Shown piece by piece: positions 24,701 through 32,450 of a stretch of 64,000 nucleotides of DNA (its first letter is position 1; every line of letters starts with the position of its first letter). Where the stretch lies: assembly GCA_051294905.1 (NCBI GenBank), contig CM119372.1:17238001-17302000 (forward strand), given 5' to 3'. The notes below the pieces were generated by a model. It searched no databases. It was not told the origin of the DNA and saw only the letters and a list, made by a program, of their open reading frames with translations. The stretch comes from Botryllus schlosseri. Taxonomy: Eukaryota. The position numbers and the translations under genes are program-made.

Positions 24701-27700
24701 CACCCGGTATGAGATTTCTTGTTGTCTGTGCCACGTGAGTGCTTTTCGTTTCTTGTACATTGCACTTCGGACTGTGGTCATGGTCACTTTTGGTCAGCTA
24801 TGTCGCATTGAAGCATACATCAGCGTCGAATGTTGACTAGCGTGCGACTATGTTGTGCAATGTGCAGATGTGCATGTTAATTTGTTTGAAGGTATAAAAA
24901 CTTTGGCATCGATATTTTGGTCATCCTAATTGCAACTGAATGTCGATTTGTCAATAACGTCGATATACAGGTATATGCCTATATTCTACTATATTTGAAT
25001 ACCGGTTACATCAGTGGTTCTCAACCTTTTTGTCTTCGCGGACCCCTTTCGGACCGGCACGGACCCCCGCGGACCCCCACAAAGTTTTACTTCAAATTTA
25101 CCTTAATTATCGTGCAAACGTCATCTGTCTTTCGCAAATTATAACTGTAGCTGTAGGCTTAGTGATAAACAGCAACAAATGACTTTTTTGGAAATAATGA
25201 TACTATACATGTAGAAATTGAAATTACTTCTATCAATTCAAAGCGAACTCTGCAATTGCATTTCTTGAAATACGTAGTCTTGTCTTGAAAATCCGCGCCT
25301 TCGATAGGATATTACCGAGTGCCGAAAATCCATTTCCACTAATATAAGTGGTGGCGAATGTAATAATAACGCGTAACGCTTCCGACGACACATTTGGGTA
25401 TGATCGCAACAAATATGGCACCAAAATTGACAAATATTTTTTTTAATGAACATATGACGTCAATCCTGGTCATTTCTATCTAGCAGCTTATCTTGAAGTT
25501 ATTATGGAAAATGGTTATATATATCACAGGAGAAATTGGATTTTTGTAAACATTTCAAAGTCACCGTGATTGACCTTACTTATCCAACTTTTTTTTCCCA
25601 CAATCCCCAACAAAACATCTCTAAACAGGAAAATGTTGGTATCCATAGGCTATTGGTAATTAAAATGAGTCTGCATAGTAGGATATTTAATCTCAGACTG
25701 CCATTCTGTTGATGTGAGCTCTGGAGTTTTACTAGTAAAGAAGCGAAACTGCCCAGTGATTTTCCGAATTAAAAAAATACAAATTCGCTTATCAACTATT
25801 TTGAGGCTTCGCGGACACCCTGAAAATGCTTCGCGAACCCCCGGTTGAGAACCGCTGGGTTACATCATGGCAAACTAAAATAGTTATAGTCGGCCATGGA
25901 TGCATCAAAACGGCGAAAACGCATCAATTGCATAGATACACAAGCTCTGTTACAATTGCCTGCAGTTACGGGAGGATTATTATAAGGTCCCACATTTCAC
26001 TTACATTCCAAGTTCTCTCTCAGAGTCGTATTGTGATGACAGGTATCAAGGAACGCACAAAAGTCCAATTTCGAATATGGCTGTATTCGAAATTACGATG
26101 GTATCCGGATACGAAGCAAACAAGGACTCGTTACAAAAGTTTAGCGAAGCCAATATGCACAATGGCCTCAAACGATACGAGATTGATGGCAAGAAAGTTC
26201 ACCTATATTTTCGAGCGGTATGACTGATCAAATCGCGGTGTGGTCGGATACTGCGTAATGTTCACGACGTCATGAGTCATTTTCACAGATATCAAAGGGA
26301 CGGAAATGTGCAGGCTTCGAGGTAAAACAAGTTCACGAAGTAAAAAATCCGAAACCGGGAGTTGTCCGCGTGTATGATTACTACGAACCTGATAAATCCA
26401 GTACAAAGTCATACAATCTATCTTGCGTGTGGGAAACGTATGAGCCAAATAGCTTCGAATCAGGTACACATACTGTACAGCTTATAAACAGAACCATTTC
26501 TAATCGATTCCAAATACCACAAGAATTGTGATAGTATACAATATCTGTGACCAGGTCTACATTGCAGTGCAGCATTTTTACGGTCGGCGGTCATCATCAT
26601 CAGAACATCCATTCCGTACAAATGATCTATAACTGTACGTGGTATAACTATAGGGTTACATTTGAAATAAATGGTGTTTTAAAACACTTTGTTGGAAACA
26701 TGGGTCCAAATTCGTATTCTTTCAGATTTTCCCCTTGTTGCGTTTGGGCTATATTGCAAGAACAGGAATATTTTGGGCCATCATTTCTGCGCCTGGCCAT
26801 ATCATCACGAAGACCTCGGCCAACACGCGTCGACCATTATGGGTCAATGTTTTATCGCCGTCAATCATTCTGGACGTGCACTTCGCGGGGTCGCATGTTG
26901 ACCGAAAAATTCATGTGTCTTGGTGTCTCCTGGCGCAGAGATGGCTGGTTCCGAAATGCTGGTGCCTAATAGTCCCCACCCGCGCTATTCACACTTCTAG
27001 AAGCATCCCAAATTCCCAATGGACTCAAGCGACACTATGGGAATATTCCGTTCTCTCACAATAGCGAATAAACGTATAGCGCTGGTATTGACTGTAGAAT
27101 ATGCATTTTTTAAATGTTTTTTCGGGAGAGTGGCACTCATATCTTGTCACAATAAATCGCGCGATGAAAAAAATTGATCTCACAATTCATTTTCAAAATA
27201 CCTCGCGAACCACTGACTTCTCGCGGGACACATGTGACCTGCAGCCACGGGTGGGCCACCCATGGTCTTGTGTAAGCTGCCGAGGAAAGTAAACTACTGC
27301 TTACTAAAATGACCGCGAATGCGCAATGCGCATAGACATGTTATATTGTATATAGCTTCCCTGTGCCATACACAACGAAACATTTGACTCGACACCTTGG
27401 CTGTTGGCTATGTGTGGTCGTATGGCGGGACCACTTCATTCAGAGAGTAACTGAGCGGACTATTCTTCCTGCAGACTGCTTGCGATGGGGTGATAACGGA
27501 CACTGTCTCACCGTATGCGAGAACAGATACTACGGCAATATATGCGGCAGTAAATCCGTGGGTCTTTTCCCGTTGCCAAAATGTTCCGTCCATTTCAACG
27601 CAGATTGTTTTTGGTTGTAGATCATTCCGAAACGATATGATTTTTGTGCGACATTCGGGGACAGTGTTTGTGGAGAGAGTGGAAAATGTCGCAACAAGGA

Positions 27701-32450: not shown

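Follow-up and report, generated by a model that had tools for sequence, protein, structure and literature searches.

What lies behind the last macroglobulin domain (MG8) of a thioester-containing protein (TEP)? The question is raised by a gene of Botryllus schlosseri that occupies much of a stretch of 64,000 nucleotides (nt), here called the window, at C2:17238001-17302000 of an assembly of 495.5 Mb and 219 contigs (contig CM119372.1 of GCA_051294905.1). The original prediction held that the frame of an A2M/CD109-type protein does not stop after MG8 and is extended by epidermal growth factor (EGF) repeats and an NTR/C345C-like domain. The reading favoured here, to which we give a probability of roughly 0.6, is that an A2M core, an EGF cassette and a six-Cys tail of the type found in mussel A2Ms are joined in one reading frame. 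This architecture is probable on the basis of sequence logic and of a paralogous copy, rather than of transcripts. A secreted A2M-class TEP would be encoded by a gene of ~55 kb, of which the window contains the 3' two-thirds, and the frame would extend ~300 residues beyond MG8, through an EGF-like block (exons E2-E5), a Pro-rich linker and a six-Cys domain of ~115 residues (E6-E8) ending at 39170.

The core of this gene can be followed through a mosaic of short open frames, in a window with a GC content of ~0.40. With 150 plus-strand open reading frames (ORFs) per scan, two Pfam scans give the plus-strand order A2M_BRD (10860-11102), A2M (13857-14394), TED_complement (16859-19585) and A2M_recep (25936-26220 and 26259-26528). 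The thioester motif GCGEQ is intact, the exon at 16868-16972 reading ..PYGCGEQNM.. in a tblastn comparison with P0040, a mussel A2M described below. When 40 kb of upstream genome are added, tblastn places MG2-MG4 exons 4.9 to 14.2 kb 5' of the window start; the gene would begin 14 kb or more before the window, and its 5' side appears complete. In the PDB, the TED exon matches A2M and A2ML1 chains only, while for the MG7 exon CD109 and A2M (A2ML1 too) rank above C3 and C5. The full-length representative matches whose names were looked up (10 of 10) are A2M, PZP, ovostatin, murinoglobulin or unnamed products grouped with them. These observations agree with the A2M/CD109-type core originally proposed; the domain order is canonical, and a grouping of the predicted protein with A2M rather than with C3/C4/C5 is probable. 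The proposal that no anaphylatoxin domain follows the RKKR motif also stands, as none of the 49 plus-strand ORFs of at least 20 residues in 11000-13400 matches ANATO at E <=1. The motif itself is found at 11566, in the plus-strand ORF 11443-11604 of the bait/linker region. It is a furin-type site, situated roughly where C3, C4 and C5 split into two chains, and the ORF is a candidate exon only. Further downstream, the 68-nt intron at 19544-19611, after the ..GGFSSTQ exon, seems to open with GC (cag/gcatgt, the slash marking the splice boundary), if the boundary follows the TEP consensus.

The reading frame behind MG8

The second MG8 exon, E1, runs stop-free to a donor at 26463/26464 (cag/gtacac). 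Joined together, E1 to E8 (Table 1) add up to 1071 nt, in which the only stop codon is the terminal one; all seven introns are of the GT-AG type, and their phases are 1, 0, 1, 0, 1, 1 and 1. The predicted continuation in phase past MG8 is upheld, with EGF-like exons and a Cys-rich tail read at 27475-32450 through GT-AG joins. In Pfam scans of the single exons, E2, E6 and E7 have no match, and the EGF halves stay below the cut-offs (E4, cEGF 4.1e-5, 23.8 versus 26.6 bits; E5, EGF_CA 1.3e-5, 25.8 versus 27 bits). The shortfall of 1-3 bits is due to the intron that interrupts the domain. The calcium-binding pattern D-I-D-E-C ... C-x-N-x-x-G-G-Y-E-C-x-C is rebuilt only when E4 and E5 are joined, which is good evidence for this splice. 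Of the families for which a HMMER check had been suggested, the scans of single exons recover A2M_recep (3.1e-11), leave the EGF families sub-threshold and miss NTR.

Phase-1 introns lie at both borders of the EGF block, as E1 and E5 end, and E2 and E6 start, in phase 1. The block is therefore a symmetric cassette, and a direct join of E1 to E6 is also in frame and would yield a protein built as in the mussels. EGF modules bounded by phase-1 introns are a classic signature of exon shuffling, and the arrangement fits an insertion of the cassette between MG8 and the tail by this route. The phase-1 borders together with the in-frame E1-to-E6 join suggest, as the simplest history, that the ancestral gene had MG8, linker and tail in direct succession and that the EGF exons were shuffled into its phase-1 intron. 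A possible source gene of the EGF exons was sought in the genome, and only the window and a partial paralog on C10 were found.

At the 3' side, the end of the protein has to be moved. It had been placed at CECSVL, while the codons for CECSVLD are followed by a consensus donor (c/gtaagt) at 32450/32451, and the TAA at 32456 falls in the intron. When downstream phase-1 acceptors were scanned for frames with a late Cys end, one convincing candidate was obtained, ctttgtcgtttcag/aa at 39025, and the coding sequence would continue to E8 at 39025-39170. The counterpart of E8 is collinear in the paralog, with 83% amino acid (aa) identity and with a nucleotide identity of 91.8% in the exon versus 83.6% in the flanks; moreover, the alignment of the window tail to the mussel tail extends into E8. 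An alternative gene end at the ORF 32673-32774 (..PRMLLAGIDINENGYY) was rejected, as no acceptor of compatible phase keeps the motif.

Within the EGF block, two details of the earlier exon reading have to be revised. E3 has one acceptor only (ttgtag/atc), which is in phase 0, and E2 must therefore end at tcc/gtgggt (27557/27558), giving an intron of 63 nt. The end ..NICG originally chosen for E2 makes use of a stronger donor 8 nt upstream (a/gtaaat at 27549/27550), which is in phase 1 and cannot join E3. As introns of 68, 77 and 89 nt are present elsewhere in the TEP gene, an intron of 63 nt is ordinary here. Furthermore, the piece read as 'F...KC' (~28343-28377) had to be dropped, since it misfits the downstream frames, and since the paralog loses the acceptor AG and gains a TAA.

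Table 1. Predicted exons and related features of the TEP gene (positions in the window)
Feature	Position	Strand	Basis
TEP core exon, end of bait-region domain (MG6)	10863..11054	+	Pfam A2M_BRD 5.3e-9 on ORF 10860-11102; tblastn of P0040 and four other TEPs
TEP core, MG7 (Pfam A2M), two exons, ~13884-13979 and ~14230-14394	13884..14394	+	Pfam A2M 3.8e-8, 6.5e-8; tblastn
Thioester exon	16868..16972	+	tblastn to P0040, 63% identity; Pfam TED_complement 2.4e-9
Remaining TED exons, several, outer limits approximate	17348..19755	+	TED_complement 3.4e-13, 0.0014, 2.3e-15; tblastn; introns 68-89 nt and longer
CUB second-half exon, first exon common to the C10 partial paralog	24495..24611	+	tblastn P0040/P0053; 34/38 aa identical in paralog
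MG8/receptor-binding domain, exon a	26062..26211	+	Pfam A2M_recep 6.8e-10
E1, MG8 exon b, phase-1 end at cag/gtacac, leaves 1 base	26289..26463	+	Pfam A2M_recep 3.1e-11; 54/57 aa identical in paralog
E2, four-Cys N-terminal half of EGF-like module, weak donor tcc/gtgggt	27475..27557	+	sequence; acceptor ttcctgcag
Putative 63-nt intron, in-frame TAG 27618-27620	27558..27620	+	same stretch 3 nt shorter and open (CAG) in paralog
E3, EGF module Cys1-Cys5, phase-1 end at gca g/gtaggt	27621..27729	+	sub-threshold Pfam EGF_CA 0.0084, Pvs28 EGF 0.0025; 31/36 aa identical in paralog
E3b, candidate optional exon, 60 nt, phase 1-1	28502..28561	+	paralog keeps splice sites, frame and both Cys; nt identity 49/60, not above intron level
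E4, EGF C-terminal half (..CWDGYSL..C) and start of calcium-binding EGF (VDIDEC..)	28698..28816	+	cEGF 4.1e-5; 32/39 aa identical in paralog, indels +6, -3 nt
E5, remainder of calcium-binding EGF, phase-1 end	30889..30997	+	EGF_CA 1.3e-5; sequence
E6, Pro-rich linker and first three tail Cys (CPKC, x14, C)	31866..32057	+	column-for-column with unionid tails; 45/60 aa identical in paralog
E7, mid tail domain, ends ..CECSVLD and one base at donor c/gtaagt	32313..32450	+	ungapped alignment to unionid CQCSVLSD; 87% aa identity in paralog
E8, last exon, NQLIVATAHD..IKRAWKKVQSHECPVSEV, sixth Cys, stop TGA 39168-39170, acceptor ctttgtcgtttcag	39025..39170	+	phase-1 acceptor scan; paralog; unionid alignment

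The tail and its relatives

An exhaustive search of representative proteins with the TED exon gives 112 proteins at E <=0.001, of which eight long matches were scanned. One of these eight, P0040 (1741 aa), has 169 residues behind A2M_recep; by its source name it is the alpha2-macroglobulin of Cristaria plicata (UniRef B5ACH4), and its tail is made up of a Pro-rich linker and CPVC-x15-C-x43-CQCSVLSD...W...C. Six further tail-bearing proteins were found by a region search, all of them from unionid mussels (P0115-P0120; predictions of Sinanodonta woodiana and Potamilus streckersoni). In all seven, the tail stands directly behind MG8 after a linker, without EGFs, and has the pattern CPxC-x15-C-x43-CQCSVL..W..C. 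The tail in the window reads CPKC-x14-C-x43-CECSVLD, followed by E8 with a W and the final Cys; the 43-residue spacing is identical, and E6-E8 share with 7 of 7 unionid tails the arrangement CxxC .. C .. CxC .. C of six conserved Cys. MAFFT places every Cys of E6 and E7, from both the window and the paralog, in the same column as its counterpart in the mussel tails, and the 43-residue stretch is free of gaps. Smith-Waterman comparison of the window tail with three unionid tails gives z scores of 5.6 (reached by 1 of 2000 shuffles), 8.0 (0 of 2000) and 3.9 (7 of 2000), and the significant alignment covers E6, E7 and E8.

By these comparisons, the window tail is judged to be homologous to the C-terminal tail of unionid A2Ms. 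The occurrence of this homologous tail within A2M polypeptides is the strongest reason to assign E6-E8 to the TEP gene, which lies 5.4 kb upstream of them. Other searches are silent: no Pfam domain is found on the unionid tails, a narrow hidden Markov model (HMM) made from them does not recover the window exons, and none of 547 pattern matches in a metagenome scan for tail relatives was confirmed. The mussel proteins also change the setting in which the gene was first placed. That A2M ends at MG8 is too strong a statement, given seven A2M-annotated unionid proteins with a six-Cys tail behind this domain. Likewise, the notion of a lineage-specific architecture does not apply to the tail, which these seven proteins share; among the proteins compared, the EGF insertion still looks lineage-specific.

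Whether this tail is an NTR/C345C domain is a separate matter. The Cys order CxxC .. C .. CxC .. C is a hallmark of NTR modules, and in the succession of C-x2-C, C, C-x-C, a hydrophobic strand, W and a terminal C the tail would resemble modules of the netrin/sFRP type. In a language-model feature search (Atlas) with the unionid tail, the named neighbours listed all belong to NTR, C3-like, TIMP, NtA or meteorin clusters, with a best score of 0.89 that is, by the tool's own calibration, a lead and not a proof. Other results speak against an NTR domain or are silent. Pfam NTR has no match at E <=10 on the unionid tail or on the tail exons of the window; a genome-wide scan for PF01759 finds three exons, none at the TEP locus; and sequence and profile searches of the PDB with the tail give no relevant match. 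When the tail is compared by hhalign with the three canonical NTR exons of the same genome, the probability is 0.12%, with a best register that is non-significant and in which the C-x-C motifs are aligned, as expected for NTR. AlphaFold2 models of the tail, made from alignments of 7 and 11 rows without the E8 fragment (which MAFFT had misplaced), have a mean predicted local distance difference test score (pLDDT) of 34.6 and 37.6. The structure prediction that had been suggested as a check thus recognises no fold, and of the evidence for the NTR-like tail of the original prediction only the feature search remains, so that an NTR/TIMP-like fold is to be taken as a lead only.

These same negative results agree with another view, in which the six-Cys tail is a separate, unnamed Cys-rich domain of some invertebrate A2Ms and not an NTR/C345C module; the exclusive NTR, TIMP and NtA company in the feature search, as a lead, the Cys order and the expected though non-significant hhalign register point the other way. 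We consider this view a serious one, at somewhat less than even odds, and it is compatible with the favoured gene model. More tentative, and on balance doubtful, is the idea that a cryptic NTR/C345C-like domain ends A2M-class TEPs in at least two distant lineages, the unionids and this animal, and that the EGF cassette was later shuffled in front of it. If this were true, the 'complement-only' C345C hallmark would either predate the split of A2M and C3 or have arisen twice. It could then be imagined that a protease-trap protein is equipped with a calcium-dependent adaptor arm, possibly as a precursor-like or a parallel solution to the recruitment of partners by C3b/C5 through C345C.

TEP subfamilies are commonly sorted by their additional domains: ANATO and C345C for complement factors, Kazal for CPAMD8, LDLa for MCR and a glycosylphosphatidylinositol (GPI) anchor for CD109 (PMC7016707, PMC9363628). 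According to these two papers on Biomphalaria TEPs, C345C marks the complement type and the A2M group is without it. The terms C345C, netrin and EGF do not occur in the accessible text of a 2026 review of A2M (PMC12939704). Full-text literature searches gave neither a TEP with EGF and NTR domains nor an account of the mussel tail, within a coverage that leaves subscription journals, and with them the likely original cloning papers, mostly outside.

Among the known systems, the unionid A2Ms are the nearest. They share with the predicted protein an A2M-class core, the succession of MG8, Pro-rich linker and six-Cys tail, and the 43 residues in front of C-x-C-S-V/M/L-L, and they differ by having no EGFs between MG8 and a tail that is ~20% identical to that of the window. 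Complement C3/C4/C5 also combine a thioester TEP core with an extra domain behind MG8 (there C345C, an NTR module) and have a basic processing site in the region where RKKR, here a predicted site, is found. However, complement factors are without EGF modules, and in the window there is no anaphylatoxin domain, the core is nearer to A2M, A2ML1 and CD109, and the tail misses Pfam NTR. CPAMD8 is a TEP of the A2M group that gained a small disulfide-rich module behind MG8 (PMC9363628), but this module is a Kazal domain and not an EGF or a six-Cys tail. CD109, insect-type TEPs and MCR have the TEP core in common with the predicted protein, and C-terminal Cys-rich stretches are described for insect-type TEPs and MCR (PMC7016707). 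They are shorter, however, and are distinguished by a GPI signal, a transmembrane helix or an LDLa insert; no such feature is seen here. Finally, the NTR modules of netrin, sFRP, PCOLCE and TIMP resemble the tail in having six similarly ordered Cys in ~115 residues and in being neighbours of the unionid tail in the feature search, but there is no significant sequence or profile similarity.

If an A2M-class core does carry a C345C-like tail, whether or not EGFs are present, the rule by which TEP subfamilies are told apart by their additional domains would lose its sharpness, and the combination would bear on the origin of the C-terminal domain of complement. The tail is already present, unannotated, within deposited mussel A2M sequences, and the phase 1-1 EGF cassette is a clean candidate case of exon shuffling into an immune gene. 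As to function, the core would be a thioester protease trap or opsonin, and the arm of EGFs and tail directly behind the receptor-binding domain may serve as a calcium-dependent docking arm for a receptor, a protease or a matrix component.

The C10 copy and competing accounts of the 3' exons

Genome searches with E1, E3, E5, E6, E7 and E8 each return exactly one further copy, on the minus strand of C10 and in the same order. This paralogous locus (C10:3710866-3743558) contains the second CUB exon, MG8 and E1-E8 as a collinear series, and collinear blastn blocks extend from 24370 to ~39730 of the window. The splice sites seen in the paralog alignments are conserved, the E5 donor lying outside the alignments. 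In the 31 kb upstream of the C10 copy there are no TEP core exons, and 87 ORFs of this upstream region give no Pfam match; TED-bearing loci, of which the genome has ~nine, are absent from C10. In E8 of the copy, a CAG has become TAG. The C10 copy is a segmental duplicate of the 3' part, and it is probably decaying.

Comparison of the two copies indicates how the tail has been used. Nucleotide identity is 90.2% in exons versus 85.3% in aligned introns (Fisher p = 6e-6), and the 12 gap columns in exons are all multiples of three, versus 296 gap columns in introns. All 23 tail Cys are kept though 56 of 286 residues differ (p = 0.005). The ratio of nonsynonymous to synonymous substitution (dN/dS) is lowest for CUB/MG8 (0.12), followed by the EGF exons (0.47), the whole tail (0.51, p = 0.008) and E6-E8 (0.55). 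Taken together, exon conservation, in-frame indels, Cys retention and dN/dS suggest that during much of the period after the duplication the tail was translated, under weaker constraint than MG8. The value of 0.12 for MG8/CUB is itself more constraint than is expected of a dead fragment; it could be due to gene conversion, to a recent death of the copy or to its use in another transcript.

Several points weigh against a full-length tail as modelled here. The constraint of 0.51 is far weaker than that of the MG8/CUB exons; E8 taken alone differs at proportions of 0.082 of synonymous (pS) and 0.072 of nonsynonymous (pN) sites; and E2 has a nucleotide identity below that of its flanks (81% versus 88%). 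The join of E2 to E3 relies on the weak donor tcc/gtgggt and on the 63-nt intron, and without this splicing event the TAG at 27618-27620 would stop the protein ~50 residues past MG8. In the paralog, E2 to E3 can be read as a single frame of 85 residues, so that the stretch could be coding there; this frame is weakly EGF-like in Pfam, with a sub-threshold FXa_inhibition match (0.0017) on the E2 equivalent, and is found among EGF clusters in the feature search at 0.91. It is possible, by this comparison, that the 63-nt stretch is exonic and that the window copy carries a nonsense codon. The number of Cys in the EGF block is odd, 17 or, with E3b, 19, which implies either one unpaired Cys or an incomplete exon model, and the exon content of the model between E3 and E4 is provisional. 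Word-index protein searches with E6 and the TED exon, in addition, find no annotated protein of Botryllus schlosseri or a close species.

In a competing account, the tail exons are real relics and the full tail is not made by the window copy, either because the TAG truncates the protein right behind MG8 and a six-Cys unit or because the main transcript skips the EGF cassette by joining E1 to E6. For this speaks that the in-frame TAG of the window faces an open CAG in the paralog, that a stronger phase-1 donor precedes the weak one, that the indel in the 63-nt stretch is of 3 nt and keeps the frame, and that the constraint on the tail is relaxed (0.51 versus 0.12). Moreover, the phase-1 ends of E1, E3, E5, E6 and E7 allow several in-frame skips, and the EGF-less form exists in the unionid proteins. 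Yet introns of similar length occur elsewhere in the gene, both copies retain the GT and AG of the 63-nt stretch, the window copy reads through E3-E8 free of frameshifts and premature stops, none of the 23 Cys is lost, and E3 exceeds its flanks in identity (92% versus 88%). We regard truncation or skipping as rather unlikely.

Alternatively, the A2M gene could be a normal one with its end at MG8, followed by a separate gene made up of the EGF and tail exons. Indeed, the unspliced MG8 frame stops 22 codons past the donor, there is an AATAAA near 27153, and the C10 copy has the 3' block without a TEP core within 31 kb. Such a separate gene is very improbable, however. E2 starts in phase 1 and requires an upstream coding base, and among 28 candidates in the 1011-nt gap between E1 and E2 for a signal-peptide-like first exon (an ATG and a hydrophobic stretch), none has a consensus donor. 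On neither strand of 24-42 kb is there another Pfam-bearing ORF. The C10 duplicate carries CUB, MG8 and tail as one collinear block, and the homologous tail is within the A2M polypeptides of the seven unionid proteins. The joined gene of A2M core, EGF cassette and tail remains the reading we favour.

Other elements in the window

Some elements are located inside the introns of the TEP gene. The intron between MG8 and E2 contains two overlapping plus-strand ORFs in different frames (144 and 132 aa, 26535-27064), which have no Pfam match and are patchy in the paralog; possibly they represent an old insertion. In an upstream intron there is a plus-strand ORF of 541 aa with an RVT_1 match (3634-5256; 9.2e-13), and just before it a related ORF on the minus strand (1443-3320). 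Both give near-identical alignments to one unrelated HMM, and they resemble copies of a retroelement arranged as an inverted pair.

Downstream of the gene, at ~52000-57450, sets of ORFs recur at a distance of 2692 nt (such as 53263-53640 and 55955-56332). Three stretches are 93-96% identical to one C10 element, suggesting that a unit of ~2.7 kb was duplicated in tandem. The only satellites reported by Tandem Repeats Finder (TRF) near this region have units of 33 and 58 nt (57799-58036).

On the minus strand at 21705-23562, within the intron that separates the TED from the CUB exons, the GTPase and C-terminal domains of a tubulin (Pfam 2.1e-23 and 1.7e-41) are found in overlapping ORFs of several frames. 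This stretch looks like an intronless, frameshifted retro-pseudogene, which explains a local rise of the GC content to 0.45.

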